A stretch of DNA of 62,999 bases from an uncultured Bacillota bacterium (GCA_946541645.1 CAMNJS010000001.1:1-62999); one strand, 5' to 3'; numbered from the stretch's first letter, positions 18,474 through 56,275 are shown. A program made the numbers and translations. The notes: a model not told the origin generated them from the letters alone.

Positions 18474-18502
18474 TTGATTTATCAAAAAAAATATGGTATA
18501 TT
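18474..18502 (+). promoter_or_regulatory. Sigma-A type promoter with extended -10
   Basis: TTGATT (18474-18479), 17-nt spacer, TGgTATATT (18494-18502). Confidence 0.6.
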
Positions 18503-18537
18503 AAATTTAAAGTAAGGGGCGAGGAGGTGATACATAT

Positions 18538-18969
18538 ATGAAACAAAATCAAAAAGGTTTTACACTTATCGAACTTTTAGCCGTAATTGTTATCTTAGCT
18601 ATTATCGCCTTAATCGCTACTCCAATTGTCATGAATGTTATTAATAAATCTAGACAAAAGGCAGCTGAAGATAGTGCATATGGTGTCATTGAAGCTATAA
18701 AAGCAAAGCATGCCGAAAGAATGCTAGATACATCTAGTGATATTAGTGAAAGTATCGAAGTTACATGGAGTGATGGCGTAGGTACAATTACAAATTCAAC
18801 TGAAACAGTTACTGTTAGTGGAACTAAACCAACTGCCGGAAAAGTTTCAATATCTTCAAATGGTACAGTTAATGTAGAAGGATTAAAGATTAACGGCTAT
18901 ACATGTAATGGTAGTGATACTGTAACATGTTCAAATGCTGCTGATGCCGCTAACAATGGTGGTAATTAA
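18538..18969 (+). CDS. Prepilin-type N-terminal cleavage/methylation domain protein (type IV pilin-like), P1
   Basis: MKQNQKG|FTLIELLAVIVILAIIALIATP class III signal peptide with Glu at +5. C-terminal Cys pair YTCNGSDTVTC. Strong RBS GAGGAGGTGA. Confidence 0.85.
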   Translation: MKQNQKGFTLIELLAVIVILAIIALIATPIVMNVINKSRQKAAEDSAYGVIEAIKAKHAERMLDTSSDISESIEVTWSDGVGTITNSTETVTVSGTKPTAGKVSISSNGTVNVEGLKINGYTCNGSDTVTCSNAADAANNGGN

Positions 18970-18994
18970 AAACGGAAAATATTTCCGTTTTTTT
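18969..18994 (+). terminator. Rho-independent terminator
   Basis: AAACGGAAA-ata-TTTCCGTTT followed by TTTT. Confidence 0.8.
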
Positions 18995-18999
18995 AAATC

Positions 19000-19028
19000 T
19001 TGAATAAATAAAACTATTATGCTATTAT
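19000..19028 (+). promoter_or_regulatory. Candidate sigma-A promoter
   Basis: TTGAAT (19000-19005), 17-nt spacer, TATTAT (19023-19028). A TATAAT also sits at 19029-19034. Confidence 0.45.
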
Positions 19029-19047
19029 TATAATAGAGGCTGATAGT

Positions 19048-19473
19048 ATGGAAGATAATTTTAAGGAAATTAAAATGGTTGAAAATGGTTTAGTTATTAT
19101 TTTGCTTTTTGTTATTATAATTATTTTGCTTCCATCTGTTACTGCAGTAATTTCAAAATCCATGCAAATGTCAGCTAAAACAAATACCAAAGGCACAGTA
19201 GAAATTGTAAAAGAATTATATATAAACATAAATTTAACTGATGACGTAATTTTGCCATTTAAAGTAATTTACAATAAAAAAGGATATGAAATATATAGTG
19301 GTGGAGAAAAATATACTCCAGTAAAAACAATTAAGATAAAAAATGAAGGGAAACTTCCCACAAGTGGAAGTGTTGAAATAGATTCAGAAGGCTACACAAC
19401 AGTTAAAAATTTAAAATTTGGTCTATACAAATGTAATCAAATTAAAGATGGAGATATAGTTTGCGAAATATAA
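19048..19473 (+). CDS. Degenerate pilin-like paralog of P1 (P2)
   Basis: Hydrophobic N-terminal helix (ENGLVIILLFVIIIILLP) without the FTLxE motif. The C-terminus GKLPTSGSVEIDSEGYTTVKNLKFGLYKCNQIKDGDIVC aligns with P1 GTKPTAGKVSISSNGTVNVEGLKINGYTCNGSDTVTC. Alternative start at 19075. Confidence 0.5.
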   Translation: MEDNFKEIKMVENGLVIILLFVIIIILLPSVTAVISKSMQMSAKTNTKGTVEIVKELYININLTDDVILPFKVIYNKKGYEIYSGGEKYTPVKTIKIKNEGKLPTSGSVEIDSEGYTTVKNLKFGLYKCNQIKDGDIVCEI

Positions 19474-19499
19474 CGGTTATTGCATAAAAACCGTTTTTT
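19472..19499 (+). terminator. Rho-independent terminator
   Basis: AACGGTT-attgcataa-AACCGTT followed by TTTT. Confidence 0.7.
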
Positions 19500-19525
19500 A
19501 TTTATAATAAAATTAGGTGATGAAC

Positions 19526-21325
19526 ATGAATCAAGAAAACATCCGAAATTTTTCAATAATTGCCCATATAGACCATGGCAAAAGCACAATAGCTGATAGA
19601 ATACTAGAACTTACTGGCGCAATTACTGAAAGGGAAAAACAAGATCAATTATTAGATAGTATGGAACTTGAAAGAGAAAGAGGAATTACTATTAAATTAA
19701 ATGCAGTACAGTTAAAATATAATTATAAAAATAATGAATATGTTATGCATTTAATTGATACCCCAGGACATGTCGATTTTTCATATGAAGTATCTAGAAG
19801 TTTAGCTGCCTGTGAAGGGGCTGTTTTAGTCGTAGATGCAGCTCAAGGAATAGAGGCTCAAACTCTTGCTAACGTATATTTAGCTTTAGAAAATGATTTA
19901 ACAATAATTCCTGTTATAAATAAAATAGACCTTCCTAATGCCGACGTTCCAAAAGTAAAAGAAGAATTAATAAACACATTAGGCTTTAAAGAAGAAGAAA
20001 TAATTTTAACAAGTGCCAAAACAGGAGAAGGAATAAAAGAACTAATTGAAGCTATAATTGATAGAGTTCCTGCGCCTAACGGAAATCCAAGCGGTAAATT
20101 ACGCGCCCTAGTTTTTGACAGCTTCTTTGATCCATATAGAGGAGTAGTCGCTTTAGTTAGAATAGTTGACGGTAAAATAAGAGTAAAAGATAAAATAAAA
20201 TTAATGGAGTCAGGAGCATCTCATGATGTGACGGAACTTGGTATAAATAATCCCAAAGAACAAATAAAAGATGAACTAACTACAGGAGAAGTTGGATATA
20301 TATGTGGAAGTATTAAAAGTATAAGAGATATTAAAGTAGGGGATACAATTACCCTAGAAAATAATCCTGCAGATGAAAAACTACCTGGCTATAAGCCAAT
20401 GAAACCAATGGTATTTTGCGGTCTATATCCAGTCGAATCAAACAGATATGCAGATTTAAGAGAGGCGCTAGAAAAATTAAAACTAAATGATGCAGCCTTA
20501 GAATTTATACCAGAGACATCAGAAGCATTAGGCTTTGGTTTTAGATGCGGATTTTTAGGACTATTACATATGGAAATAATTGAAGAAAGAATTGAAAGAG
20601 AATTTAACATAGACTTAATTGCTACAAGCCCATCAGTAGTTTATAAAATCACTAAAACAGATAATGAAGTAATTAATATAGATAGTCCTGCCAAAATGCC
20701 AGATAGACAAAAAATAAAAATCATCGAAGAACCATATATAAGAACTAATATATATGTACCAGCAGAATATATCGGACAAATTATGGAATTATGCCAAAAT
20801 AAAAGAGGAACATATATAAATATAGAATATATAAATACTGAAAGAGTAAATATTCATTATGAAATACCACTTTCAGAAATTGTCTACGATTTTTTTGATA
20901 AACTAAAAGGCGTAACTAGAGGATATGCTTCATTTGACTACGACCTAATAGGATATAAACCAAGTGATTTAGTAAAAATGGACATCTTATTAAATGGAAA
21001 TTCAATAGATGCTCTAAGCTTAATTGTTCATAAAGATTTTGCATATAAAAGAGGAAAAGCCATTGTTGAAGCTCTAAGAAAATTAATACCAAGACAGCTA
21101 TTCGAAGTTCCAATCCAAGCCGTTATTGGTTCCAAAGTAATAGCTAGAACAGACATTAAAGCCCTAAGAAAAAATGTTTTAGCTAAATGCTATGGCGGAG
21201 ACATAACAAGAAAAAGAAAATTACTAGAAAAACAAAAAGAAGGCAAAAAAAGGATGAAAATGGTGGGAAATGTTGAAGTGCCACAAGAAGCATTCTTAGC
21301 CGTCTTAAGTATGGAGGAAGAATAA
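19526..21325 (+). CDS. lepA: Elongation factor 4 (translational GTPase LepA)
   Basis: [16 protein letters not shown] and DTPGHVDF motifs plus the LepA C-terminal domain. ATG at 19526 follows AGGTGA; the track start at 19517 is a GTG. Confidence 0.96.
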
Positions 21326-21327
21326 TT

Positions 21328-21588
21328 ATGAATGGACCATCAGGAGAAAAAAAACAAGAAAGTATAAGTAGAGCTAAAGCTTATGAAAATGGGAATCTAG
21401 AATTTAAATATCTTCATCCAGTTGACTTACTATACGTAAGAAAAAATGGCAAAAGAATTTTGAAAATTGAAAGAGCAAGACGAATTTTATTTGCCGTTGT
21501 TCTAGCAGGCGCTAGTGATTATGATATTGAAGATAGGACAATTATAGACATATATGAAGAATATAAGAAAAAAGGAAAAACAATATGA
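21328..21588 (+). CDS. Hypothetical 86-aa protein, translationally coupled between lepA and hemW
   Basis: Starts 2 nt after the lepA stop behind GGAGGAAG; its stop overlaps the hemW ATG (ATGA). Confidence 0.5.
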   Translation: MNGPSGEKKQESISRAKAYENGNLEFKYLHPVDLLYVRKNGKRILKIERARRILFAVVLAGASDYDIEDRTIIDIYEEYKKKGKTI

Positions 21589-22664
21589 GTATATATATTC
21601 ATATTCCTTTTTGTACAAGTATATGTACATACTGCGATTTTCCTAAAATATTAAAAAACGAAGAGTTTATAGACAAATATTTACTGGAATTAGAAAAAGA
21701 AATCAAAAAAAACTATAAAAATGAAAAAATAGATACACTCTATATCGGCGGAGGTACTCCTACATCATTAAGCATAAAAAAATTAAATAAACTATTTGAA
21801 ATAGTAAAAACTTTTAATTTAAATAAAAACGCTGAAATAACCATAGAAGCAAACTCCGAAGATCTAACAGATGAAAAATTAAAACTACTAAAAAGACACG
21901 TAAACAGATTAAGCATTGGTATTGAAACATTTAATAAAGAAATATTAAAAAAATTAAATAGAACTATAAATATAGATAATTTAAAAAATGCTTTCAAATA
22001 TTTTGATAACGTTAATCTTGACCTAATGTATGGTTTTGAAAATGAAACTATAGAAGACTTAAAAAAAGATTTAGAAAAATTAGTTAAGCTAAATCCCACT
22101 CATATTTCAACATATAGTCTTATTATCGAACCGAACACAAAATTATACATAAATAACTATTCCAAAATAGATGAAGACCTAGATAGAAAAATGTATGACT
22201 ATATAATTAAATATCTAAAAGAAAATAATTATAAACACTATGAAATAAGCAATTTTTCTAAGCCAAATTACGAATCAAAACATAATTTAGTATACTGGAA
22301 TAACAACCACTATTACGGTTTTGGGTTAGGTGCAGGAGGTTATATTGAAAACACAAGATATGAAAACACAAGAAGCTTAACAGAATATTTAAAAGGAAAT
22401 CACAAATTAAATTATCATAATTTAAATAAAAATGAGATAATTCAAAACGAATTTATGCTAGGATTTAGAAAAATAAAAGGAATAAATAAAGAAAGCTTTA
22501 AACAAAGATACAACATAAACATAGATGACATTAAAGAAATCAAAGAATTATTAAAACAAAACCTTTTAAAAGAAGATAAAAAAAACATATACATCAGCAA
22601 AAAATATCTATATACATCAAACGAAATACTTATTAAATTAATTGATTTCGAAGAAAAGTTATGA
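21585..22664 (+). CDS. hemW: Radical SAM heme chaperone HemW (HemN-like)
   Basis: IHIPFCTSICTYCDF (CxxxCxxC) motif and HemN C-terminal domain. lepA-hemN adjacency as in Bacillus. Confidence 0.85.
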   Translation: MSIYIHIPFCTSICTYCDFPKILKNEEFIDKYLLELEKEIKKNYKNEKIDTLYIGGGTPTSLSIKKLNKLFEIVKTFNLNKNAEITIEANSEDLTDEKLKLLKRHVNRLSIGIETFNKEILKKLNRTINIDNLKNAFKYFDNVNLDLMYGFENETIEDLKKDLEKLVKLNPTHISTYSLIIEPNTKLYINNYSKIDEDLDRKMYDYIIKYLKENNYKHYEISNFSKPNYESKHNLVYWNNNHYYGFGLGAGGYIENTRYENTRSLTEYLKGNHKLNYHNLNKNEIIQNEFMLGFRKIKGINKESFKQRYNINIDDIKEIKELLKQNLLKEDKKNIYISKKYLYTSNEILIKLIDFEEKL

Positions 22665-22686
22665 TATATTTATAATAGGTGATGAT

Positions 22687-24363
22687 ATGAAAAATAAAGG
22701 ATTCACATTAGCAGAAATATTAGGAGTAATAGTAATAATAGGATTGTTACTACTATTAGTCGCACCAAACATAATAAATAGAATAAGTTCAAATAAAGAA
22801 AAGGTAAGTAAAACAACTGAAAAAATAATCTATAATGCCGCAAGCACATATGTCGACGAAAATAGTGAAAAATATAAATTAGGAAAAAGATATTGTGTAG
22901 CTATTAAAGACTTAATAAAAGAAGGTAAACTAGCAAGCCCATTAAAAGATCCAGTAACTGGAGATGATTATGAGCCAAAAACATTACTTGTAACAATTTA
23001 TAATAATGGAACAAAAGAGTATGAATTATATGATAATATTGCGGAGTGTGAAACATATTCAAAACTTCCATTTATTCAAATATATGCAGATAACAGTAAA
23101 TGGGAAAAATCAAAAACAGTAACAATAACATATCCAAAGGTAGGAAATGAAGAGTATCCACTAGTAGGAAAAAACTATGCATATCAAGTGCCAGGAAAAA
23201 CGTTAGTAGAAAAAGAAACTGCCTTTGAAAATAATACACAAACAATTACGGGTGTAATGTCAAATGGAGAAGTAACAGCCAGTATGCTATATGGAAATAA
23301 AATAATAACAGCAACAAAAAAAATAAATAAAATTGATAATACTGCGCCAACATGTGATGGTCAAACTGGTGGAAAAACAACATGCACAAAAGATCAAAAT
23401 GTAACGGTAGGTGCAAAGTGTAAAGATGAGCAAAGCGGCTGCACTCAAGATGAATTTACTGCTGTAATTAGTGGTGAAGGAGATACCCAAAAAAAAGAGA
23501 TAACAATATCAGATAATGCCGGAAACACTAATACATGTAATTATACATATAGCAAAAATATAGACACAACAGCCCCAGACATACCACAAATAACAAATCC
23601 TACAAACGGAAACTGGACAAATAGTAATATTAAGCTAACTTTAAAATCAAAAGATACTGGATGCGCTGGAATAGCAAATTATCAGTATACTTATTCAAAT
23701 AGTGCAACAGAAGTAGGAAACAACCACAATACATATTGGGTGAAATATAGTGGAGATTCAGCAAAAGAAACATTTGTAAGTTCAGACTTTAGTGCAGAAC
23801 GTAATCAATATGTCTATGTAAGAGCTTGTGATAGTTTAGGAAATTGCTCAGGCAAATCACAAACAATGATAAAAATTGATAAAACGAGACCAACATGTAG
23901 TACCTCGAAATCAAGTATTGGTTCAGCAAGCGGTGTAAATGTAGCAATAAGTTGCAAAGATGATAGTCATGCGACGACTAATAGCGGTGTTAAAACATGC
24001 GCAGGCACAAATGGCGCATCATCTAGCAAAACAGGTGTCAAAACTACAACCTCATATACGGTAACAGACAAAGCTGGGAATAGTAATACATGTAGTGCGT
24101 CAGTGACCTACGATAGCTGCTATCATGTAGGTTATACATGCGCTTATGGCTGCGATACATGTGGCGGAGATGCATATTCCTGCCCAGAAACAAAATGTGT
24201 AACCACATCTAGCATGAATACATACTGTCCTAACGGTGGAGTATTTGTTGCCGGTCGAGGATGTTGCTATGAAATACCAAAAACATGCTATCATGACACT
24301 TATAGATGTAACTGCAGTAGTTGTCACCATTATGTTAATACATGCAGTGGAGGTTACAAATAG
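22687..24363 (+). CDS. Large modular prepilin-type protein (P3): pilin module + Ig-like repeats + Cys-rich C-terminal module
   Basis: MKNKG|FTLAEILGVIVIIGLLLLLVAP, then a GspG/ComGC-like LIKEGKLASPLKDPVTGDDY. Repeated ID(N/T/K)T(A/R)P...D.AGN..TC modules follow. 14 Cys in the last 81 residues. ATG at 22687 follows AGGTGA. Confidence 0.8.
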   Translation: MKNKGFTLAEILGVIVIIGLLLLLVAPNIINRISSNKEKVSKTTEKIIYNAASTYVDENSEKYKLGKRYCVAIKDLIKEGKLASPLKDPVTGDDYEPKTLLVTIYNNGTKEYELYDNIAECETYSKLPFIQIYADNSKWEKSKTVTITYPKVGNEEYPLVGKNYAYQVPGKTLVEKETAFENNTQTITGVMSNGEVTASMLYGNKIITATKKINKIDNTAPTCDGQTGGKTTCTKDQNVTVGAKCKDEQSGCTQDEFTAVISGEGDTQKKEITISDNAGNTNTCNYTYSKNIDTTAPDIPQITNPTNGNWTNSNIKLTLKSKDTGCAGIANYQYTYSNSATEVGNNHNTYWVKYSGDSAKETFVSSDFSAERNQYVYVRACDSLGNCSGKSQTMIKIDKTRPTCSTSKSSIGSASGVNVAISCKDDSHATTNSGVKTCAGTNGASSSKTGVKTTTSYTVTDKAGNSNTCSASVTYDSCYHVGYTCAYGCDTCGGDAYSCPETKCVTTSSMNTYCPNGGVFVAGRGCCYEIPKTCYHDTYRCNCSSCHHYVNTCSGGYK

Positions 24364-24385
24364 ATGTCAATTTTGACATCTTTTC
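24363..24385 (+). terminator. Rho-independent terminator
   Basis: GATGTC-aatttt-GACATC followed by TTTTC. Confidence 0.6.
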
Positions 24386-24441
24386 TTATGCTTTAAAAAA
24401 CTATAAATAGATGATATAATGTAATTAAAGTGGTGAATGGC

Positions 24442-25011
24442 ATGAAAGAAAATATTTTTGAAAAAGAAATTTCTTATATAAAAAATAATCATTACAAGGA
24501 AAACATTAAAATATTAATAAATTTACTTCCAGACTATTTTTTCAAAGTTGCTGCATCATCAACAGGAAAGTATCATCCAAAATTTGCCTTAGGAGATGGC
24601 GGACTAGTTAGGCATACTAAAGCTGCTGTAAGAATAGCCAACGAACTATTTTTAGATAAGGCATTAAATGATTTTACAGATGATGAAAAAGACATGATTA
24701 TTATGGCACTAATAATGCACGACGGACTAAAACACGGAATAGAAGAAGAAAAATACACAAAATTTGAACATCCTGTGATTATGGCAAACTACATCGAAGA
24801 AAAGAAACATTTATTAACACTTTCAAACGAAGAAATAGAGTTTTTAAAAAATGCTATTATAAGCCATATGGGCCCATGGTGTACAAATCCTTATAGTAAT
24901 ATAATTTTGCCACTACCACAAAATAAATATCAAAAATTTGTCCATTTATGTGATTATCTAGCCAGCAGAAAATTTTTAGATATCACATTTGAAAACAATG
25001 ACATAAAGTAA
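24442..25011 (+). CDS. HD-domain phosphohydrolase (second HD protein in window)
   Basis: GKYHP...LVRHTKAAV...ALIMHDGLKHG motifs. ATG at 24442 follows GTGGTGAA, with upstream TGaTATAAT (24412-24420). Confidence 0.65.
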   Translation: MKENIFEKEISYIKNNHYKENIKILINLLPDYFFKVAASSTGKYHPKFALGDGGLVRHTKAAVRIANELFLDKALNDFTDDEKDMIIMALIMHDGLKHGIEEEKYTKFEHPVIMANYIEEKKHLLTLSNEEIEFLKNAIISHMGPWCTNPYSNIILPLPQNKYQKFVHLCDYLASRKFLDITFENNDIK

Positions 25012-25024
25012 GGGGGAATATATA

Positions 25025-25921
25025 ATGTCAAAATGGGATATAGAATATTTAAAACTATGCAAAGAAATATTAAATGAAGGAGTAAAAAGTCCAAATAGAA
25101 CAGGAATAGACACCTACAAGATACCATCTTATCATTTTAAATTAGATGTAGGTGAAGAATTTCCAATACTTACTACTAAACAAACATATTCAAGACAAGC
25201 ATTCTTAGAAATGCTGTGGATTTACCAAGAAGCTTCAAATGACGTTAGAGATTTACAAAAAGTTGGAGTTCATATATGGGATGAATGGGAAATAGCTGAA
25301 GATGGATACTGGTATGCTAGGCAATATAAAACAGATAAAGATGGGAAGCAAGTATTAGATTTTGACAAAAAATTCTTTGGTAAAGAATATGCTCACACAA
25401 TAGGCACGGCTTATGGATACGTTGTAAAAAAATATGATTTAGCTAACAGAGCAATTAAATTAATAAAGGAAGATCCATTTAATAGAAGAAATGTTATAAG
25501 CCTATGGCAGGAAGCAGATATAGAAAAAGGTGTACTAAAGCCATGTGTTTGGTCAAGTGAATGGGATGTTACTAAAGGCAAACTTAATGCCTGGGTTCAC
25601 CAGCGAAGCTGCGATGTGCCATTAGGGTTACCATTCAATGTTACCCAATATGCAGCCTTACTATATTTATTCGCCAAAGAAGCAAATTTAAAACCAGGGA
25701 CTTTAGATTGGTCAATAAAAGATGCCCAAATATATGAAAACCAAGTATATGGCATAATAACCCAAATTGAAAGAGAAAGCCTTGAACCATTAGAAGCCCC
25801 AACATTATGGATAAATCCTGAAAAACATTTTGGCGAATATGACTTTTCAAAAGAGTGTAAAGATATAAAAGTATTAAATTATAAACACCATGGCCCAATA
25901 AAATTTAAAATAGCTAAATAA
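25025..25921 (+). CDS. thyA: Thymidylate synthase (ThyA, B. subtilis ThyA/ThyP3-like)
   Basis: PILTTKQ, HIWDEW, LKPCVW (catalytic Cys), HQRSCDVPLGLPFNVTQYA (Asn retained) and APTLWINPE...NYKHH motifs. RBS AAGGGGGA. Confidence 0.88.
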   Translation: MSKWDIEYLKLCKEILNEGVKSPNRTGIDTYKIPSYHFKLDVGEEFPILTTKQTYSRQAFLEMLWIYQEASNDVRDLQKVGVHIWDEWEIAEDGYWYARQYKTDKDGKQVLDFDKKFFGKEYAHTIGTAYGYVVKKYDLANRAIKLIKEDPFNRRNVISLWQEADIEKGVLKPCVWSSEWDVTKGKLNAWVHQRSCDVPLGLPFNVTQYAALLYLFAKEANLKPGTLDWSIKDAQIYENQVYGIITQIERESLEPLEAPTLWINPEKHFGEYDFSKECKDIKVLNYKHHGPIKFKIAK

Positions 25922-26400: not shown

Positions 26401-26403
26401 TAT

Positions 26404-27087: not shown

Positions 27088-27111
27088 CCTATTAAAAAAT
27101 AGGCTTTTTTA
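27086..27111 (+). terminator. Rho-independent terminator
   Basis: AGCCTATT-aaaa-AATAGGCT followed by TTTTTT. Confidence 0.8.
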
Positions 27112-27155
27112 ATAATTTAGATATAAAAACAAACGTATATTATCATGGTGATAAT

Positions 27156-45744: not shown

Positions 45745-45757
45745 TTATTAAAAATAA

Positions 45758-47059: not shown

Positions 47060-47086
47060 TGTAAAAAAATATAAATAGAATAATAG

Positions 47087-47650: not shown

Positions 47651-47763
47651 ATTTATCACCCCTCTAATATTTATAATAGGTGTAAACTAAAAATAATATG
47701 CATTAAAATAAATGACAAAATTATATATTTTTGGTAAACTAATAATAGATAGTAGGGGATAAA

Positions 47764-49425
47764 ATGAAAAAACTAAAATTAAAATATAAAGATAGATACA
47801 TTGAAAACGTTGAATATGAAACGCCACTATATGAGATATTAAAAGAAATAAAAGAAGATTATAAATATTCAGTAGTAGGTGCAAGCCTAGATGGGTATCT
47901 AGTAGATTTAAATACCAAAATAACTGAAAATGAAAAAGTAGAGTTTTATGATACATCTTCAGTTATTGGAAATAGAATATATGCCCGAAGTTTAGAATTT
48001 TTAATAACAGTAGCCTGCAAAAAAGTTTTAGATAATGATTCTGAAGTTTTAATAAATTACTCCTTAGAAAATGGTGTATGTATTGAAATAACTGGCAAAA
48101 AAATCAGCACCATAACGATAAAAAAAATAGAAGAAAAAATGAACGAATTAGTAAATAGTGAACTACCAATTAACTATATAATTGTAGATAGATTAGATGC
48201 CATTAAATATTTTAAAAGAAATAACCAAATGGATAAAGTAAATTCCTTAAAATATATGACCAGCAAAACAATTACCTTATATACATTAGATGACGTTTAT
48301 GATTATTTTTATTGGCCACTTGTCTATAATACTAAGTTATTAAACAAATTTGCCATTAGTAACCTAAAAGATAATAAATTTATTTTAAGTTATCCTACTA
48401 GTGCAAACCCAAACAAAGTAAAAGAATATATAAAACACGACCTTACTGCAAAAACATATGAAGATTTTCAAAATTGGGGTAGACTTATAAATATTAAAAC
48501 AGCCTCAGACCTCAATAGACTCTGCGCGCTAGGACAAGATGTTGAAACCGTAAAACTATTTGAAACTCATTATGAAGATCAATTATCAAAAATCGCCGAG
48601 GAAATATCCAAAAGAAAAGATAAAATAAAAATAATTTTACTAGCAGGACCTTCATCAAGCGGTAAAACGACAACTGCCAAAAAACTAGAGTTATATTTAA
48701 AAGTAAAAGGAATGCACACGAAAAAGATTTCTCTTGATAACTATTTTGTAGATAGAATATATGCCCCAAAAGATGATGAAGGAAATTTAGATTATTCAGA
48801 CATTAAATCTCTAGATGTAACCTTATTTCAAAAGCAACTATCTAGAATGTTAAAAGGAAATAAAGTATTAATGCCAACTTATGATTTTGTAAACGGCAAA
48901 AAATATTATAAAGATAACTACATAAAATTAGCAGAAGATGACATTATAATTGTTGAAGGCATTCATACCCTAAACGAAAAGCTCACAAGCATCATACCTA
49001 GAGAAAATAAATATAAAATATTTATAAGCCCACTAGTCAGCTTAAAATTAGATAATCATAATAGAATACATTCAACAGATGTCAGAAAAATAAGAAGAAT
49101 TGTAAGAGATAATCTGTTTAGAGGAACCAGTGCTGAAGAAACACTTGCCATGTGGCCAAACGTCGATAAAGAAGCCATAAAAAATATATATCCATACCAA
49201 GACGATGCCGATTCTATATTAAACTCATCGTTAGGTTACGAACTAAACGTGCTTAGAATATATGCCGAACCATTATTATACGGAATTGAAAGTACAAGTA
49301 AAGAATATGTAGAGGCTGTAAGACTTTTAAATTTATTACACAATTTTTTAACGATTACCAGTGAAGTAGTACCAAAAGATTCAATTTTAAGAGAATTTAT
49401 TGGTGGAAGTAGTTTTAAAGATTAG
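47764..49425 (+). CDS. Nucleoside/uridine kinase family protein with N-terminal TGS-like domain
   Basis: P-loop LLAGPSSSGKTTTAKKL in a PRK/uridine-kinase-like C-terminal half, 553 aa. Confidence 0.6.
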   Translation: MKKLKLKYKDRYIENVEYETPLYEILKEIKEDYKYSVVGASLDGYLVDLNTKITENEKVEFYDTSSVIGNRIYARSLEFLITVACKKVLDNDSEVLINYSLENGVCIEITGKKISTITIKKIEEKMNELVNSELPINYIIVDRLDAIKYFKRNNQMDKVNSLKYMTSKTITLYTLDDVYDYFYWPLVYNTKLLNKFAISNLKDNKFILSYPTSANPNKVKEYIKHDLTAKTYEDFQNWGRLINIKTASDLNRLCALGQDVETVKLFETHYEDQLSKIAEEISKRKDKIKIILLAGPSSSGKTTTAKKLELYLKVKGMHTKKISLDNYFVDRIYAPKDDEGNLDYSDIKSLDVTLFQKQLSRMLKGNKVLMPTYDFVNGKKYYKDNYIKLAEDDIIIVEGIHTLNEKLTSIIPRENKYKIFISPLVSLKLDNHNRIHSTDVRKIRRIVRDNLFRGTSAEETLAMWPNVDKEAIKNIYPYQDDADSILNSSLGYELNVLRIYAEPLLYGIESTSKEYVEAVRLLNLLHNFLTITSEVVPKDSILREFIGGSSFKD

Positions 49426-49438
49426 GAAGGATGATAAA

Positions 49439-50458
49439 ATGATTAAAGTAGCAATTAATGGTTTTGGTAGAATAGGAAGGCTAGTATTTAGAATAATGGA
49501 AGAAGATTCTGATTTTGACGTTATAGCCATAAACGACTTAACGGATCCTGAACAGCTCGCATACCTATTAAAATATGATACATCCCATAGAAGATACTTA
49601 GAAAATGAAATAACTTACGATGATGAAAATTTAATTGTCAAAGGTCGAAAAATTAAAGTTTACAAAGAAATGGATCCAAATAACCTTCCATGGAAAGAAC
49701 TAGATATAGATGCTGTCTATGAATGTACAGGTAAATTTACAGAAAAAGAAAAAGCTCAAGCCCATATAAATGCCGGAGCCAAAAAAGTTATTATTTCAGC
49801 CCCAGCCAAAGGAGACTTAAAAACCATAGTTTATGGTGTTAACGAGGACATACTAGACGCAAATGATACCATTATAAGTGCCGCTTCATGTACAACAAAC
49901 TGCCTAGCTCCAGTAGTTAATATACTAAATAAAGAATTTGGTATAAATAAAGGCTACATGACCACTGTTCACGCCTATACAAACGATCAGTCAATACTAG
50001 ATTTATCACATAAAAAAGGCGCAAAATCAAGAAGAGGAAGAGCTGCTGCAGCTAATATAATTCCATCATCAACAGGGGCCGCAAGTGCTCTAGGAAAAGT
50101 AATACCAGATTTAGGCGGAAAACTAGACGGTAGCGCTTTAAGAGTGCCTGTAACCACAGGCTCAGTTGTAGACTTAACACTAGAACTAGCGAGAAAAGTT
50201 ACAAAAGAAGAAATAAACGAAGCGTTCAAAAAAAATGTAAGTGACACCTTAGAATATACTATAGATCCAATAGTTTCAAGCGACGTTATAGGAAATACCC
50301 ATGGAGCTATAATCGATAGCTTACTTACTGACATATTAGAAACAGAAAACGGAGATTTAGTCAAAGTAGTAGCTTGGTATGACAACGAAATGGGCTATAG
50401 CGCTCAAATGGTAAGAACTGTCAAACATTTATGTCAAAAAACAAGAATTGATAATTAA
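49439..50458 (+). CDS. gap: Glyceraldehyde-3-phosphate dehydrogenase
   Basis: MIKVAINGFGRIGR, SCTTNCLAP and WYDNEMGYS motifs. ATG at 49439 follows AGGAAGG. Confidence 0.96.
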   Translation: MIKVAINGFGRIGRLVFRIMEEDSDFDVIAINDLTDPEQLAYLLKYDTSHRRYLENEITYDDENLIVKGRKIKVYKEMDPNNLPWKELDIDAVYECTGKFTEKEKAQAHINAGAKKVIISAPAKGDLKTIVYGVNEDILDANDTIISAASCTTNCLAPVVNILNKEFGINKGYMTTVHAYTNDQSILDLSHKKGAKSRRGRAAAANIIPSSTGAASALGKVIPDLGGKLDGSALRVPVTTGSVVDLTLELARKVTKEEINEAFKKNVSDTLEYTIDPIVSSDVIGNTHGAIIDSLLTDILETENGDLVKVVAWYDNEMGYSAQMVRTVKHLCQKTRIDN

Positions 50459-50486
50459 ATTTTATAATAAAAAAATAAATATATTT

Positions 50487-50514
50487 AACTTTAGAATTCT
50501 TCTAAAGTTTTTTA
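50487..50514 (+). terminator. Rho-independent terminator after gap
   Basis: AACTTTAGA-attct-TCTAAAGTT followed by TTTTT. Confidence 0.75.
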
Positions 50515-50595
50515 ATATATTACCAGCCCTTTTAAATTTAAAATACCTTGTTATTATAAAAAAAATGTTATAAAATAATATTAGGTGATTATAAT

Positions 50596-50937
50596 ATGAA
50601 AAATGGATTCACACTCGTTGAATTACTTGCTGTCCTAGTTGTCCTAGGCGTAATTACACTAGTATCTGTCCCAAGTATTATTACTACTAATAAAAAATCA
50701 ATTGAAAATGACTATAATGAATTTAAAAGAACAGTTGAAAATGCAGCTGAGATCTATATTGAAACTCACCCAGATAAAAAGCCATCAAACCAAACTCAAG
50801 TTTCTGTATCAATGTTAAAACATAGTGGCTACTTAGAAACTGGGCTAGTAAATCCTAAAAATGGCGAAATTAGTGAAAACGCATACGTCCTTGTAAGCAA
50901 AACCGGAAACAGTTATACATATGAATATAAGGAGTGA
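50596..50937 (+). CDS. Prepilin-type pseudopilin-like protein (P4), first gene of the pgk operon
   Basis: MKNG|FTLVELLAVLVVLGVITLVSVP and the GspG/ComGC-like MLKHSGYLETGLVNPKNGE. Upstream TGtTATAAA (50566-50574). The stop is 4 nt before the pgk ATG. Confidence 0.85.
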   Translation: MKNGFTLVELLAVLVVLGVITLVSVPSIITTNKKSIENDYNEFKRTVENAAEIYIETHPDKKPSNQTQVSVSMLKHSGYLETGLVNPKNGEISENAYVLVSKTGNSYTYEYKE

Positions 50938-50941
50938 TAAT

Positions 50942-52126
50942 ATGAAAAAAACAATCAAAGATTATGACTTAAAAGGTAAAAAAGTAATTATAAGATGTGA
51001 CTTCAACGTTCCAATAGAAGGCGGAGTAATAAAAGATGATAACCGAATTAGACAAAGCTTAAAGACTATTAGATATGCAAGAAAAATGGGCGCAAAAGTC
51101 ATTTTACTTTCACATTTGGGAAGAGTAAAAACCGAAGAAGATAAAGAAAAATATACCTTAAGACCAGTAGCTGAAGCATTATCAAAACTCTTAAGAAAGA
51201 AAGTTATATTTATAAATAAAACAAGAGGAAAAGAAGTAGAAGAAACCATAAAAAACATGAAGGAAAAAGATGTTATCCTACTAGAAAACACTAGATTTGA
51301 AGACTTAGAAAAGCAAAAAGAAAGTAAGAATGATAAAAGACTAGGAAAATACTGGGCTAGTTTAGGTGATATTTATATTAATGATGCCTTTGGAACTATT
51401 CATAGATCACACGCCTCAAATTTAGGAATAGCAAAACATCTAAAAAGTGGCGTTGGATTTCTTGTGGAAAAAGAAATAAAAGAACTTGAAAAACTTACTA
51501 AAAACCCTAAAAAACCATATACAATTATTCTAGGTGGTTCAAAAGTAAGTGACAAAATAAATTTGCTTAAAAATTTAAGTAAAAAAGCTGATTATATTTT
51601 AATAGGAGGCGGCATGGCCTTTACATTTTTAAATGCTGCTGGCTTCAATATAGGATCATCACTATGTGAAAAAGAAGAAATTCCATTTTGCAAGCAACTA
51701 TTAGAAGACTATCCAGACAAAATCATTTTACCAATTGATATAATTACAGCTAAAGAAATAAAACAAAATGTTAAAACTAAAAATCGCTTTGTAAACGAAA
51801 TAGAAGAAGATGAGATAGGGTTAGACATTGGTAAGAAAACTCTAGAAGTATTCAAACAATATATTGACGACAGTAAAACCATCTTTTGGAATGGGCCTAT
51901 GGGATACTTTGAAATAAAAGATTTCTCTAAAGGGACAAAAGGGTTATGTGAAGTTATAGCAAATTCAAAGGCTTATAAAATAATAGGTGGCGGTGACACC
52001 GCAAGAGCTGTAACTGAAATGGGATATGAAAAGAAAGTAAACCATATATCAACTGGCGGAGGAGCAAGCCTTACATTTCTGGAAGGAGTAAAGCTCAAAG
52101 CTTTAGATAGTATTAATGAAAAATAA
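50942..52126 (+). CDS. pgk: Phosphoglycerate kinase
   Basis: VIIRCDFNVP, SHLGR and GGGDTA motifs. ATG at 50942 follows AAGGAG. Confidence 0.95.
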   Translation: MKKTIKDYDLKGKKVIIRCDFNVPIEGGVIKDDNRIRQSLKTIRYARKMGAKVILLSHLGRVKTEEDKEKYTLRPVAEALSKLLRKKVIFINKTRGKEVEETIKNMKEKDVILLENTRFEDLEKQKESKNDKRLGKYWASLGDIYINDAFGTIHRSHASNLGIAKHLKSGVGFLVEKEIKELEKLTKNPKKPYTIILGGSKVSDKINLLKNLSKKADYILIGGGMAFTFLNAAGFNIGSSLCEKEEIPFCKQLLEDYPDKIILPIDIITAKEIKQNVKTKNRFVNEIEEDEIGLDIGKKTLEVFKQYIDDSKTIFWNGPMGYFEIKDFSKGTKGLCEVIANSKAYKIIGGGDTARAVTEMGYEKKVNHISTGGGASLTFLEGVKLKALDSINEK

Positions 52127-53117
52127 CAAAAGAAATTACATAATTATACTTCTTTTAACTGCCATAATCTTATATTTAGTTTTTAAAGATAATTTCACAG
52201 AAAAAATAAAATACTTATTTTCATTTGATATAAAATGGTTACTATTTGCTTTTATTCTAATGATTTCGTATTGGGTTTTAAAAGGCATAGTTTTATACTA
52301 TTGTGTAAAAAAAATTGATAAAACATACACTAGAAAAAAAGGAATTAATTTAATGCTAACAACCCAATTTTTTCACGCTATAACCCCATTTTCAACCGGT
52401 GGACAGCCCTGGCAAATATACAAGTTAAAAAAAGAAGGACTTACACTAGGAGAAAGTACAACTATAATAGTAGAAGACTTTATCGTATACCAAATTGCCC
52501 TAGTGTCTTTAGGACTAATTGCCGTTGTTGTAAATAACACATTTAATATACTATCAAAAGACAGTTTTTTAAAATATCTAGTTACGATCGGCTTTATAAT
52601 AAATGCTTTAATAATAGTACTTTTATTTTTAGTCGCCTTTAATAAAAAATGGAACAAAAAGATAATAAATGGAACAATAAATTTTGGAGCCAAAATTAAG
52701 GTCATAAAAGATAAAGAAAGCCTATTAAAAAAGGCAGAAAATTTTATAAATAATTTTCACAAAAGTGCAGATATACTATTCAAGCACAAATTAAATTTTA
52801 TAAAAATTATACTGCTAAATTTTTTTGCTCTTTCACTACTATACTTAATTCCTTATGCCCTTATGCGAGGATTAAACATAAATGCAAATCCATTTATTGT
52901 CGTAATAACATCAGCATATGTTATGTTGATAGGTGGAGTAGTTCCAGTTCCAGGCGCAGCGGGAGGCCTTGAATATAGTTTTATGTCATTTTTTAAAAAT
53001 TTCATCAAAGGCCCAAAACTATCCATTATAATGATTGTTTGGAGAATAATAACTTACTATTTTGGACTTATAATTGGATTATTCATTTTAAGCTTTTGCG
53101 AGGAGGATAATAAATGA
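52116..53117 (+). CDS. UPF0104 / MprF-like flippase-domain membrane protein
   Basis: About 8 TM helices with TPFSTGGQPWQIY and VPVPGAAGGLE motifs. Overlaps the pgk stop by 11 nt. Confidence 0.7.
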   Translation: MKNNKRNYIIILLLTAIILYLVFKDNFTEKIKYLFSFDIKWLLFAFILMISYWVLKGIVLYYCVKKIDKTYTRKKGINLMLTTQFFHAITPFSTGGQPWQIYKLKKEGLTLGESTTIIVEDFIVYQIALVSLGLIAVVVNNTFNILSKDSFLKYLVTIGFIINALIIVLLFLVAFNKKWNKKIINGTINFGAKIKVIKDKESLLKKAENFINNFHKSADILFKHKLNFIKIILLNFFALSLLYLIPYALMRGLNINANPFIVVITSAYVMLIGGVVPVPGAAGGLEYSFMSFFKNFIKGPKLSIIMIVWRIITYYFGLIIGLFILSFCEEDNK

Positions 53118-54346
53118 GAATAGGAATTTTTACTGAGACATATACTCCTTATATCAGTGGACTAGTAACCAGTGAACTCATGCTAAAAAAAGCTCTAGAA
53201 AAAAAAGGACACGAAGTTTATGTCGTTACAGCCAACTTAGATAGTTTTGAATATGAATATGATGAAAAAGAAAAGGTACTTAGAATTCCAGGAATTCCAA
53301 CTGGAATATATAACGCGAGACTAACCAGTATTTATCCAATTCAATCATTAAATAAAATAAAAAGCTGGCATCTTGACATTATTCACTCACAAACAGAGTT
53401 TGGAATCGGTTCATTTGCCAGATTATTTGCTAAACAATATAACATTCCCATAGTGCATACATATCACACTATGTATGAAGATTATGTACACTATATAACC
53501 AAAGGCCACTTCAATCGATCAAGTAAAAAAATAGTTGAATATTTAACAAAATTTTATTGCGATAAAACCATAAGTGAACTAATTGTACCCACAAAAAAAG
53601 CATATGACCTGTTCAAAGAAAAATACAATGTTAAAAGAAACATTCACATAATTCCAACCGGAATTGAAGTTGATAGATTTTACAGAGAAAATCAAGACAT
53701 CAAGAAAATCCAAGAATTAAAAAAGAAATACAACATAAAAAAAACAGACTTTACCTTGATTTTTGTAGGCAGAATAGCTGAAGAAAAAAATATACCATTT
53801 ATAATTGACGTAGTTTCAAATATAGCTGAAAAAAATAAAAATTTAAAATTATTAATAATTGGAGATGGTCCTGATAAAGCAAAATACGAAACATACGTTA
53901 AAGAAAAAAAAGCCGAAAAAAACATACTATTTACTGGAAAAGTATCGTGGGAAGATATTCCGGCCTACTACGCAATAGGAAATGTCTTTATTTCGGCCTC
54001 AACCACAGAAACCCAAGGTCTCACAATTATTGAAGCCATGGCCTCATCACTTCCAGCCTTATGCATTGATGATGAAAGTTTTAATGGAACTGTTATTGAT
54101 GATCTAAATGGCTACCTATTTAAAGATAAAGCAGAATGCGAAAAGACAATATTAAGAATTATAAATAAGCAAAAAGATTTAGAAAGGTTAAGTAAAGGCG
54201 CTAGAAACAGTGCTGACAAACATTCATCAAAATATTTTGCTGAAAGAGTATTAGACGTGTATAGAATAGCTATAAAAAATAAAAAACCAAGTTATAAAGA
54301 AAAAATAAGTAAATTCTTTAAAAAGGTGATACCATGGAAAAAATGA
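53114..54346 (+). CDS. GT4 glycosyltransferase, diacylglycerol glucosyltransferase (alMGS)-like
   Basis: MRIGIFTETYTPYISGLVTS N-terminus and the E..G....EAMA motif (TETQGLTIIEAMAS). ATGA overlap with the upstream gene. Confidence 0.75.
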   Translation: MRIGIFTETYTPYISGLVTSELMLKKALEKKGHEVYVVTANLDSFEYEYDEKEKVLRIPGIPTGIYNARLTSIYPIQSLNKIKSWHLDIIHSQTEFGIGSFARLFAKQYNIPIVHTYHTMYEDYVHYITKGHFNRSSKKIVEYLTKFYCDKTISELIVPTKKAYDLFKEKYNVKRNIHIIPTGIEVDRFYRENQDIKKIQELKKKYNIKKTDFTLIFVGRIAEEKNIPFIIDVVSNIAEKNKNLKLLIIGDGPDKAKYETYVKEKKAEKNILFTGKVSWEDIPAYYAIGNVFISASTTETQGLTIIEAMASSLPALCIDDESFNGTVIDDLNGYLFKDKAECEKTILRIINKQKDLERLSKGARNSADKHSSKYFAERVLDVYRIAIKNKKPSYKEKISKFFKKVIPWKK

Positions 54347-55014
54347 TATTTGTAAATCAAAAAATGTATTTAGATAGTATAAGTGACATAAAAAAGTTTC
54401 AAAACGAAACAATTGATTATAAAGATAAATTTATTATCTTTCCGTCTGATATATACCTAAGTGATTATATAAGCAAAGGATTTACTGTTGGTAGTCAAAA
54501 CATATCACCAGAAGATAGTGGGGCCCATACTGGGCAAATATCTGGAAAGGCCTTAAAAGATTTAGATGTTAGTTATGTAATGATTGGCCACTATGAAGTT
54601 TGTAAACATTATAAGGAAAAATGTGTCAGGATTCAAGAAAGAATAAATCAAGCGATAAAAAACAATCTAAAAGTAGTTTTATGTGTTGGTGAGAATATTG
54701 AAGAAAAAACAAACGGCCAAACAAAAGAAACAATAAAAAGAAAACTAGAAAATTTAGATTTAAATGAAAATATAATTATTTCCTATGAACCAGTATGGTC
54801 CATAGGTACAGATCTTACCCCAACAAATGAAGAAATAGAAGATATTGTAAATTACATAAAAACATTTAAAAACGTAAAAGTCCTATATGGTGGAAGCGTT
54901 GGCCCAAACAATATTGATATATTAAATAAAATCCCAAATTTAAATGGATTTTTACTAGGTAGTCACGCCTTACAAAGTAGTAATTTAAAAAAAATAATAG
55001 AAGTTGTACAATAA
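54334..55014 (+). CDS. tpiA: Triose-phosphate isomerase, short and divergent
   Basis: Asn/Lys (VNQKMY), His (IGHYE) and Glu (YEPVWSIGT) catalytic positions are present, plus YGGSV. Several phosphate-loop positions deviate from consensus. Overlaps the GT4 stop. Confidence 0.7.
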   Translation: MEKMIFVNQKMYLDSISDIKKFQNETIDYKDKFIIFPSDIYLSDYISKGFTVGSQNISPEDSGAHTGQISGKALKDLDVSYVMIGHYEVCKHYKEKCVRIQERINQAIKNNLKVVLCVGENIEEKTNGQTKETIKRKLENLDLNENIIISYEPVWSIGTDLTPTNEEIEDIVNYIKTFKNVKVLYGGSVGPNNIDILNKIPNLNGFLLGSHALQSSNLKKIIEVVQ

Positions 55015-55115
55015 CTTCTTTTTAATTAATAAAAAATCGACAAAATTAGCTATTTTTTACTCTAGAAAACAGTGTAAAGATTTTGTATAATTTGAATAGT
55101 AAAGGAGAATAAAAC

Positions 55116-55877
55116 ATGAAAACAAATATTTTAATGATTGATGACAATAAAAATCTAATTGACATGGTGAAGGAGTATTTTAAGAATAATGAAAATATAA
55201 ACATAGTCTTCGAAGCCTATGACGGAGAAGAAGGTATAGAACAATTAGAAAAAAATAGTGAAAACATAGATTTAATACTCTTAGACTTAATAATGCCAAA
55301 TAAAGATGGATTTTACGTTTTAAACGAAATGAAAAAAAGAGGCATGAATAAAAAAGTAATTGTAGCGACAAGTTATAATGCCGCCGAAGTAATTAGAGAA
55401 GTATCAGAATATGGTGTTAGTTATTATGTTTTAAAACCTTTTGATCTAAATATATTAGAAAAGAGAATACACGACATTACAAATAAAAAAGAAGAAACAG
55501 AAGACATCGACTTTTATGCAAGCAACCTTCAAGTTTCTATTACTAAAATGCTACATGAACTTGGAATTCCATCACACATAAAAGGATATGGATACATCAG
55601 AGAAGCTGTTTGTATTATATTTGAAAATCCTGAAATAATAGGTGGAATAACAAAAGAGTTATATCCTGCACTAGCTTCAAAATTCAACACAACTGTGTCG
55701 CGAGTAGAAAGAGCAATTCGTCATGCTATTGAAGTGAGCTGGAATAGGGGTAACTTAGATTTCATGGAAGAATTATTCGGCTATAGTGTAGATATAGATA
55801 AAGCAAAACCGACAAATTCAGAATTTATGGTTACCATTGCCGACAAATTAAGATTAGATTTTCATAAAGTAAGCTAA
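55116..55877 (+). CDS. spo0A: Sporulation master regulator Spo0A
   Basis: Receiver domain (DDN..., LDLIMP) plus the Spo0A-specific C-terminus: [19 protein letters not shown] and [15 protein letters not shown]. Confidence 0.95.
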
Positions 55878-55921
55878 TCTTTTTTTTCTATAAAAAATAT
55901 GTTAAAATTATATTAGGTGAT

Positions 55922-56263
55922 ATGATGAAAAATAAAGGATTTACTCTAATGGAACTTTTAGGAAGCATTACTATACTAGCCTTAATTGCTCTAATAGTTT
56001 TTCCAGCCATATTAAATATGCTAGGTGATTCACAAAGTAAAATAGATAAAGCAAAGCAAGACTATGTAATAAGCGCAGCTAGAGAATATGTAAAAGATAA
56101 TGATTTAGAAGTTAATACAACCATTAGCATTGACGTAGATATATTAATTAAAAAAAATTATTTAAAAGAAAACATGATTGATGAAGAAATGACAAACGAT
56201 AGCGTTACATGTACTAAAATTGATGGTACTATAACTTATAAGTATAATGAAGAAAGTGATTAA
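55922..56263 (+). CDS. Prepilin-type pseudopilin-like protein (P5)
   Basis: MMKNKG|FTLMELLGSITILALIALIVFP and AAREYV...LIKKNYL. Upstream TGtTAAAAT (55900-55908). Confidence 0.85.
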   Translation: MMKNKGFTLMELLGSITILALIALIVFPAILNMLGDSQSKIDKAKQDYVISAAREYVKDNDLEVNTTISIDVDILIKKNYLKENMIDEEMTNDSVTCTKIDGTITYKYNEESD

Positions 56264-56275
56264 TTCACTTTTTTC
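56254..56275 (+). terminator. Rho-independent terminator overlapping the P5 stop
   Basis: AAGTGA-ttaat-TCACTT followed by TTTT. Confidence 0.6.

Follow-up and report, generated by a model that had tools for sequence, protein, structure and literature searches.

The five genes P1 to P5, found in DNA from an uncultured, spore-forming, low-GC bacterium of the class Bacilli from the gut or rumen, probably encode subunits of a type 4 filament (a type IV pilus-like fibre), forming a dispersed set of pilins whose machinery is encoded elsewhere; we place the probability of this reading at roughly 0.7. The pilus system is of an ordinary kind in an unusually scattered form, as relatives encode the motor, the platform and the peptidase elsewhere. 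An ORF check of the window (the whole stretch of DNA analysed, 63 kb) recovered all five ORFs, at the following coordinates:

18538-18969, + strand: P1, 143 aa, canonical type IV pilin with the leader MKQNQKG, mature Phe1, Glu5 and Pro22, and a C-terminal Cys pair (C123/C131)
19048-19473, + strand: P2, 141 aa, degenerate P1 paralog with Glu in place of the cleavage-site Gly(-1)
22687-24363, + strand: P3, 558 aa from the ATG (the longest ORF begins at 22642)
22687-23058, + strand: pilin module of P3, a small GspG/PilE1/ComGC-like pilin domain
23059-24363, + strand: C-terminal extension of P3, divergent Ig-like repeats and a Cys-rich tail
50596-50937, + strand: P4, 113 aa, small type IV pilin, first gene of a pgk / LPG-synthase / GT4 / tpiA run
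55922-56263, + strand: P5, 113 aa, small type IV pilin in the spo0A-dus interval, paralog of P4

Prepilin signals and pilin architecture

The first-pass annotation had attributed class III (prepilin) signals to four of these five ORFs, and this was confirmed, P2 being a diverged paralog. Short basic leaders precede Gly(-1), Phe(+1) and Glu(+5) in P1 (MKQNQKG/FTLIE), P3 (MKNKG/FTLAE), P4 (MKNG/FTLVE) and P5 (MMKNKG/FTLME). With Pfam N_methyl (PF07963; cut-off 21.2 bits), P1 scored 39.5 bits, P5 28.9, P4 25.0 and P3 21.1 (just under the cut-off), while all four exceeded the TIGR02532 cut-off of 16.3 bits (35.9, 22.3, 28.2 and 17.4, respectively). The Pfam and NCBIfam HMM searches returned no match of P2 to either model. 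A six-frame scan of the window placed the prepilin motif N-terminally in P1, P3, P4 and P5 only; one extra internal match, in a glycosyltransferase, is a chance occurrence. Matches to the T2SS pseudopilin model GspG (TIGR01710) were confined to the N-terminal 50 residues, with the best scores of 35.2 bits (P3) and 31.4 bits (P1) lying far from the cut-off of 88.85, and for Tad/Flp a TadF Pfam match of 15.7 bits fell below its cut-off of 27.3. The pilus of the TANB77 gut clade is encoded by a Tad cluster (PMC11680825), and its "conserved pilin" was rejected as a relative of P1-P5, as it belongs to that unrelated system (PMC11680825). Pili are not mentioned in the Tenericutes phylogenomics paper.

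P1, a candidate major subunit, has more than 6000 homologs by homology search. In an alignment of 47 of these, G-1, F1, T2, L3, E5 and P22 are invariant and the C-terminal Cys pair is common to all; the N-terminal 29 residues are invariant among homologs and the middle is variable. Between P1 and its counterpart in congener L007, codons 1-29 differ by seven synonymous and no non-synonymous changes, whereas identity over the whole protein is 56%, compared with 87% and 92% for the neighbours valS and lepA. These comparisons demonstrate, at the sequence level, strong purifying selection on the N-terminal signal and helix and fast evolution of the exposed part.

P2 is related to P1 (BLASTP E value 7e-9). 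The two N-termini align without gaps, and P2 retains the equivalents of Glu5 and Pro22; its N-terminus (MEDNFKE/IKMVE) has Glu at -1, where the sister-species ortholog (L007) has Gly. AlphaFold2 models of both proteins (mean pLDDT 89.5 for P1, with a helix at 10-63; 91.7 for P2, with a helix at 3-64) combine the helix with a beta-sheet, four to six strands being modelled; these high-confidence models predict the same pilin-like architecture for both. When the P1 model was compared with PDB structures by Foldseek, no pilin was matched significantly; the only hits, to sliding clamps, were insignificant.

P3 is a modular type IV pilin, in that a complete pilin module and further folded modules are predicted in one polypeptide. 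Its residues 1-117 share 29-44% identity with P5, with P6 (a sixth pilin, see below) and with small pilins of relatives. Residues 125-558 match repeated modules in more than 1000 large homologs, 69 of them at E<=1e-30; among the 150 best homologs of the extension, 83 or more begin with the prepilin motif. Weak Pfam matches of the repeats are to HYR, Big_3_2, Big_13 and DUF7743, and most of the 28 Cys residues of the whole protein lie within its last 90 residues. By sequence, P3 belongs to a large family of giant modular pilins.

P5 is 30% identical to P4 (E value 7e-10), and P4 aligns over its full length with PilE1 of Streptococcus sanguinis (8pfb, E value 7e-5). The type IV pili of S. sanguinis (major pilins PilE1/PilE2, modular minor pilins PilB and PilC) are likewise those of a monoderm Firmicute with short-leader class III signals, and P3, with adhesin-like domains grafted onto a pilin module, has the modular-pilin architecture. 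The S. sanguinis minor pilin PilB is presented as a modular pilin in PMC8179133, and modular pilins are widespread, with hundreds of domain architectures (PMC6916266). In contrast with S. sanguinis, each pilin gene here stands by itself with housekeeping genes around it, neither PilT nor PilMNO is seen, relatives included, and the P3 extension consists of Ig-like repeats and a Cys-rich tail.

Assembly machinery in the window and in relatives

No ATPase, platform or peptidase was identified in the window by phmmer, using PilB/T/C/D/M/N seeds against all ORFs of at least 60 aa, and the Pfam check, run on a subset of the other ORFs (labels for most others came from syntenic loci), was also negative, which agrees with the original observation that the window contains no pilus machinery. 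The search rests on phmmer because the Walker A regex is blind to the GATGSGKS motif of this lineage; an L031 ORF taken by this regex for a secretion ATPase is FtsK. Other assemblies of the same species extend the examined DNA leftwards by 7.8 kb and rightwards by about 8.5 kb, to 79 kb in all; these flanks contain no PilB, PilC or PilD, and the left one encodes the sixth pilin, P6.

In five relatives a PilB/GspE-type ATPase is encoded together with two to three divergent minor pilins, always beside holA. This ATPase lacks an N1 domain and scores 502 bits with GspE, 490 with PilB, 270 with ComGA (NF041000; cut-off 300) and about 52 with the TadA-family model. One of the five loci, L100, shares its MAG (GCA_028694645.1) with L025, in which P1-like pilins adjoin genes syntenic with the window. 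On the metagenome contigs L140 and L144, PilB is followed by PilD (A24_N_bact and Peptidase_A24) and PilC (T2SSF), and a Lon-PDZ / Gate / minor-pilin / PilB block is common to L144 and the five relatives. None of the relatives showed PilM/N/O or PilT. In the species studied here, the holA-convergent site that carries PilB in the five relatives holds a histidine kinase preceded by a pilin, so that here the ATPase has been either relocated or lost. Four candidates for its PilB (P0270, P0302, P0316 and P0328) were rejected, all being from other species; all have the PilB/holA arrangement.

It is doubtful that these genes represent a Com-type competence pseudopilus, with P4, P5, P6 and the P3 module as ComGC/ComGD-like DNA-uptake subunits, a minimal ATPase/platform/peptidase set, and the whole being the dispersed relic of a comG-like locus in an ancestor. 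ComGC (NF040999) is the best NCBIfam name for P4 (40.7 bits) and P3 (38.0 bits), and P5 has a partial match to ComGE (NF041013; 27.6 bits). The machinery of the relatives resembles the ComG pseudopilus of Bacilli (ComGA/GB/GC-GG and ComC) in being minimal: it comprises an ATPase, a platform, a peptidase and several small pilins but lacks a retraction ATPase, there being no PilT or PilMNO nearby, and the missing N1 domain of the ATPase points the same way. The comG operon of Erysipelotrichales adjoins efp (PMC12786226), and pilins are located beside nfo-PBP-efp in relatives L021, L041, L047, L048 and L054. Against this, every ComG equivalog cut-off is missed (75 for ComGC, 49 for ComGE, and 300 for ComGA by an ATPase that reaches about 500 bits with GspE/PilB), the window contains no comGA-GG operon, comEA or comEC, and giant P3-type pilins with Ig-like repeats suggest adhesion. 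Moreover, P1 has a predicted beta-sheet globular head and disulfide, features that the solved ComGC fold reportedly lacks.

The first-pass annotation had left two alternatives, of which a dispersed repertoire with remote machinery fits the relatives, and the recruitment of pilin folds without machinery is the less likely. Under the latter, the proteins would be orphan, pilin-like bitopic proteins fixed in the envelope by their N-terminal helix, cleaved or not, in a species that has lost the assembly machine. The 79 kb without machinery, the kinase at the holA-adjacent site and the loss of Gly(-1) from P2 are compatible with this, but we consider it unlikely: five genes retain intact G-1/F1/E5 signals, with only synonymous changes in codons 1-29 of P1 relative to the congener, minor pilins occur at all five inspected PilB loci of relatives, and homology searches recovered more than 80 PilB sequence clusters. 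PilB is also a solo gene in relatives, so that its absence from the 63 kb window is to be expected.

Position of the pilin genes among housekeeping genes

More than ten independent assemblies show the layout of the window. The order valS-P1-P2-lepA is found in L007-9, pilin-pgk and spo0A-pilins-lepA in L005, and gap-pilin-pgk with spo0A-pilin further along in L077. The scattered pilin positions are conserved, those before lepA, before pgk and after spo0A being occupied in genus- to family-level relatives, as a comparison of the valS-lepA, gap-pgk and spo0A junctions, suggested with the original annotation, also established. Although the source is a metagenome-assembled contig, there is next to no chance that assembly or binning mis-joined comG/pil fragments to housekeeping genes, since valS-P1-P2-lepA, gap-P4-pgk and spo0A-P5-dus are identical in many independent assemblies (different samples and assemblers) and the same junctions exist in diverged relatives; the layout is real.

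P1-P5 do not lie in a comG/pil operon, in line with the earlier view of their organisation. The description of the genes as solo units holds for P1 and P2 but not for P3, P4 and P5, which abut housekeeping genes: P3 starts 23 nt past the end of hemW, P5 starts 44 nt past spo0A, and P4, whose stop lies 4 nt from the pgk ATG, heads the pgk-tpiA gene run. P1 and P2 alone look monocistronic because the other three sit 4-44 nt from housekeeping genes. The local signals are as follows:

18474-18502, + strand: promoter-like element 5' of P1, TTGATT-17-TATATT with TG, then the ribosome-binding site GGAGGTGAT; weak, equally common in shuffles
18968-18992, + strand: terminator-like hairpin and U-run after P1 (-9.8 kcal/mol, z -3.6; 0/200 shuffles fold as well)
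24362-24381, + strand: terminator-like hairpin after P3, from a scan (-9.3 kcal/mol, z -5.0)
50487-50513, + strand: terminator-like hairpin and U-run after gap, 5' of P4 (-8.4 kcal/mol, z -4.0)

A further hairpin lies over the P5 stop codon (-12.5 kcal/mol, z -5.2), only a weak one is found 3' of P2, and the P4-pgk gap has none. Promoter scans were discarded as evidence for the promoters previously ascribed to individual genes, matches in this AT-rich DNA being no commoner than in shuffled sequence. The upstream layout said to be shared by P4 and P5 was likewise rejected as a special element; the similarity largely reduces to TAGGTGAT, a ribosome-binding site of general use that occurs 10 times in the window, lepA and nfo being among the genes that it precedes.

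The type IV pili of C. difficile and C. perfringens are, as here, those of Firmicutes with multiple pilin paralogs; clostridial pilins are mostly encoded in or next to pilB/pilC/pilD clusters, whereas here none is. Diderm type IVa pili differ in their secretin and alignment complexes. Scattered pil genes are part of the classical definition of Tfpa (PMC6916266), but in the relatives of this bacterium each core component can stand alone between housekeeping genes, and the pilins lie inside housekeeping runs.

Proposed assembly and significance

A PilD-type peptidase, encoded outside the examined 79 kb, would cut the leaders of P1, P3, P4, P5 and P6 after Gly(-1), and a PilB/PilC motor would polymerise the cleaved pilins via their hydrophobic N-terminal helices. 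The shaft of the fibre may consist of P1-type and/or P4-type small pilins, with P3 as a modular pilin whose Ig-like repeats and Cys-rich knot would be exposed on the fibre to serve adhesion. P2, in which Gly(-1) is missing, is probably uncleaved or may play an accessory role. The placement of pilins within housekeeping gene runs, P4-pgk above all, would give steady, constitutive expression.

It is possible, and we suggest it only tentatively, that a minimal PilB/PilC/PilD machine, together with the class III signal, has become the general surface-display route of this genome-reduced, uncultured Bacilli radiation, two orders of which (RFN20 and ML615J-28) are reported to be without sortases. 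Many pilin-fronted proteins, the smallest being 110-aa subunits and the largest adhesins that exceed 1000 aa and carry Ig-like repeats and Cys-rich knots, would then be encoded singly around the chromosome and wired into housekeeping runs such as pgk-tpiA, not placed under a dedicated pilus regulon.

No principle of pilus biology is overturned by this case. The giant modular pilin family is large and mostly unannotated, and could supply the principal adhesins of uncultured Bacilli that are abundant in the gut and rumen. In this monoderm the genes of the type 4 filament are atomised, the pilins and, in relatives, even the ATPase being single genes amid core genes, and operon-based pilus detection would therefore call such genomes pilus-free.

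Prepilin-type ORFs and their families

A six-frame scan of the window (29% GC) found the prepilin motif at the N-termini of P1, P3, P4 and P5 only, plus one internal chance match in a glycosyltransferase. All five ORFs proposed in the first-pass annotation were confirmed at their coordinates, and the class III signal assigned to four of them holds: P1, P3, P4 and P5 exceed the TIGR02532 cut-off (16.3 bits), with P3 narrowly below that of Pfam N_methyl (21.1 against 21.2 bits). The leaders of these four are basic and 4-7 residues long. With same-species assemblies the region could be followed for another 7.8 kb to the left, where a sixth pilin (P6) was identified, and for ~8.5 kb to the right, where neither a canonical pilin nor machinery was found. 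ENA assemblies ERZ28613016, ERZ28612970 and ERZ12302814 also contain this species.

Prepilin-type ORFs of the window (P1-P5) and of its left flank (P6); ↓, cleavage site
P1, 18538-18969: leader, G↓FTLxE(L/I)L motif and hydrophobic helix; TIGR02532 35.9 bits, N_methyl 39.5 bits
P2, 19048-19473: no HMM match; paralog of P1
P3, 22687-24363: leader, motif and helix; TIGR02532 17.4 bits, N_methyl 21.1 bits
P4, 50596-50937: leader, motif and helix; TIGR02532 28.2 bits, N_methyl 25.0 bits
P5, 55922-56263: leader, motif and helix; TIGR02532 22.3 bits, N_methyl 28.9 bits
P6, L101:7045-7398, ~1.3 kb left of the window start: canonical prepilin of 117 aa (MKNKGFTLIELLAVILIIG...); TIGR02532 32.4 bits

P6 lies between a HIGH_NTase1 gene and a histidine kinase gene, the latter cut by the window edge so that its 3' part forms window 114-899. 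Right of the window in the same species, a protein of 159 aa that starts MKENGFVTSALLYGILSLFLLLILG is encoded at L135:16368-16847. It matches LRR_5 weakly, its N-terminal leader and helix resemble those of pilins although Glu5 is missing, and it may likewise be a surface protein with a pilin-type front.

The family of P1 comprises thousands of pilins of 120-150 aa in uncultured 'Bacilli', 'Firmicutes' and 'Tenericutes' MAGs. Among 47 members there is no variation at G-1, F1, T2, L3, E5, P22 or the C-terminal Cys pair, and the middle part is variable. Identity to the congener L007 is only 56% for P1 and 59% for P2, against 80-95% for housekeeping neighbours, and codons 1-29 of P1 differ at 7 synonymous and 0 non-synonymous sites. 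In an assembled, surface-exposed pilin the signal and polymerisation helix are expected to be constrained and the exposed head to evolve fast, and the pattern in P1 appears to fit such a protein.

P2 is a true paralog of P1 despite the lack of an HMM match, in keeping with its earlier description as degenerate. The two are similar at E 7e-9 and their N-termini align without gaps; P2 retains residues equivalent to Glu5 and Pro22 and, at its C-terminus, the pattern G.K.PT.G...Y.C...C. Its cleavage-site Gly is replaced by Glu (MEDNFKE↓IKMVE), whereas the congeneric ortholog still has Gly (MDDNVKG↓IKMVE). Confident AF2 models of P1 and P2 show a helix of ~55-60 residues and a small beta-sheet; no pilin was among the Foldseek matches. 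In sequence comparisons P1 gave a weak full-length match to Thermus PilA5, and P4 matched S. sanguinis PilE1. One small pilin module is common to P3, P4, P5 and P6.

Beyond this module, P3 carries 434 more residues, which match repeated modules in >1000 large proteins (Pfam gave weak Ig-like similarity only). The 150 best of these include at least 83 that start with a prepilin motif, and many have, like P3, a Cys-rich tail at the C-terminus. P3 is thus a modular pilin, and its family is large and poorly annotated; that modular pilins in general are widespread is already established (PMC6916266). The Cys-rich C-terminus of P3 (window 24130-24363, GRGCCYEIPKTC...) also resembles that of L054:61-1587 (DGRCCSIKNPDIC), a non-pilin surface protein with GLVG-type repeats from an Erysipelotrichia MAG, and the two may share a C-terminal module. 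Five tandem genes in a related MAG (L062:1252-12037) encode pilin-fronted proteins of ~675 aa each.

Assembly machinery in the window and in relatives

On the preferred reading, with a probability of about 0.7, the pilin genes encode subunits of a genuine type 4 filament and are dispersed, some of them wired into runs of housekeeping genes; they would be served by a machine encoded elsewhere and itself fragmented in the clade. PilB, PilT, PilC, PilD and PilM/N were absent from all window ORFs of at least 60 aa (phmmer, seeded from a Paenibacillus operon, L033), which, with the Pfam labels, bears out the claim that the window lacks pilus machinery. The other ORFs were labelled with Pfam, a subset directly and most of the rest through syntenic loci in relatives and in the same species; the labels are those of housekeeping and sporulation genes, including rpsT, gpr, spoIIP, nfo, a PBP, efp, trmB, rnhB, valS, lepA, hemW, thyA, folA, pyk, leuS, rpsD, ezrA, thiI, SASP, clpP, gap, pgk, tpiA, spo0A, dus and parE.

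Three consecutive genes between trmB and ytxH (window 11333-12989) have no passing Pfam match; they encode a 200-aa lipoprotein-like, an acidic 256-aa and a 94-aa membrane protein, with 41-81% identity in relatives (L007, L025, L046). A 61-aa Gly/Pro/Tyr-rich ORF (window 58356-58541, minus strand; MNQGFRPNFRPGFGRPGF...YYPYYPYYGGFYYR) is annotated as a gene in other assemblies, and a small ORF of similar composition occurs in L031 (11137-11415).

Low-GC loci fetched via P1 had no PilB, PilC or PilD within 10 kb, except L054, where a PilB-like ATPase of 397 aa sits upstream of nfo-PBP-efp, in divergent orientation to two minor and four major-like pilins. Searches with this ATPase, and then with a relative (P0233), yielded a highly conserved ATPase of the PilB/GspE type, represented by >80 sequence clusters, without an N1 domain and with an acidic C-terminal tail. 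It scored 502 bits for GspE, 490 for PilB and 270 for ComGA, below the ComGA cut-off of 300; a competence-type function for the filament is considered unlikely. Alignment A4 (L100, L109, L116, L121, L127) showed a Walker A GATGSGKS, four conserved Cys and a conserved terminal DDDDLMNMEF.

All five of these PilB loci share the order gpr, rpsT, transglutaminase-like, Lon-PDZ, Gate, 2-3 divergent minor pilins, PilB and convergent holA, the minor pilins and PilB lying in an rpsT-holA interval of ~6 kb; neither PilC nor PilD adjoins PilB there. Their gpr products are 51-61% identical to that of L121, taken as reference, and those of L100, L109, L116 and L121 are 53-58% identical to window gpr. Two loci from a metagenome scan (L140, L144) have PilB followed by PilD (A24_N_bact and Peptidase_A24) and PilC (two T2SSF domains), then sigA, and L144 shares the Lon-PDZ/Gate/minor-pilin/PilB block with the five. 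The clade thus holds the full core set of ATPase, platform, peptidase and minor pilins, with PilD-PilC kept beside sigA/trmK; PilT and PilMNO were not seen in its loci. In one minor pilin encoded beside PilB (L140:1442-2899, minus strand), the prepilin N-terminus is followed by an ALK/LTK glycine-rich domain (PF12810, E 1e-37).

In the focal species a kinase, not PilB, is convergent with holA, and holA-rpsT-gpr are contiguous, so its own PilB-type ATPase has been either relocated or lost. Loss of the machine in the focal species, which would leave the pilins as orphan membrane proteins, is judged unlikely. L100, with PilB, and L025, with P1-like pilins beside a block syntenic with window 10.6-13.4 kb, come from the same MAG (GCA_028694645.1), and dispersed pilins and ATPase therefore coexist in one genome. 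The contiguity of holA-rpsT-gpr-spoIIP (window 896-3211), with lepA-hemW nearby, matches the B. subtilis gene order.

Placement and transcription of the pilin genes

The valS-P1-P2-lepA, gap-P4-pgk and spo0A-P5-dus junctions are unchanged in >10 independent same-species assemblies, which excludes the assembly artefact raised by the first-pass annotation; the layout recurs in diverged relatives too. Loci L007-9 have valS-P1-P2-lepA and lack P3, L077 has gap-pilin-pgk...spo0A-pilin-pilin, and a more distant relative has pilin-pgk...tpiA-spo0A-pilin346-pilin139-pilin132-lepA. Across 39 low-GC loci of related MAGs, P1-like N-termini adjoin a variety of housekeeping genes (nfo, dus, rpsD, leuS, rnhB, ftsK and valS), about half of these N-termini fronting proteins of 300-1050 aa.

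The suggestion that most of the genes have their own promoter and/or terminator stood in part. Terminator hairpins follow P1 (z -3.6) and P3 (z -5.0), and a weaker one P2. Promoter-like hexamers were equally frequent in shuffled sequence and so carry little evidential weight; P1 is preceded by a TG-extended -10 and a strong GGAGGTGAT ribosome-binding site. The distance from the preceding gene is 23 nt for P3 (hemW) and 44 nt for P5 (spo0A). A terminator-like hairpin (z -4.0) separates gap from P4, whose stop codon lies 4 nt from the pgk ATG without an intervening hairpin; P4 therefore heads the pgk/LPG-synthase/GT4/tpiA run. The upstream layout said to be shared by P4 and P5 was largely discounted, as the similarity ends in TAGGTGAT, the ribosome-binding site in common use here, which occurs 10 times in the window.

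Comparison with known pili and implications

In diderms, type IVa pili are classically characterised by scattered pil genes (PMC6916266). The scattering is shared here, but the host is a monoderm and the degree of atomisation differs. Also distinctive are the conserved positions of pilin genes, immediately ahead of pgk and behind spo0A, and the large number of giant modular pilins. The related, uncultured orders RFN20 and ML615J-28 have been reported to lack sortases (PMC10868615), and we infer a link of the focal genome to RFN20-like lineages from its spore genes, low GC and MAG names. The reported lack of sortases motivates a more novel and purely hypothetical reading, that pilin-type display might substitute for sortase anchoring.
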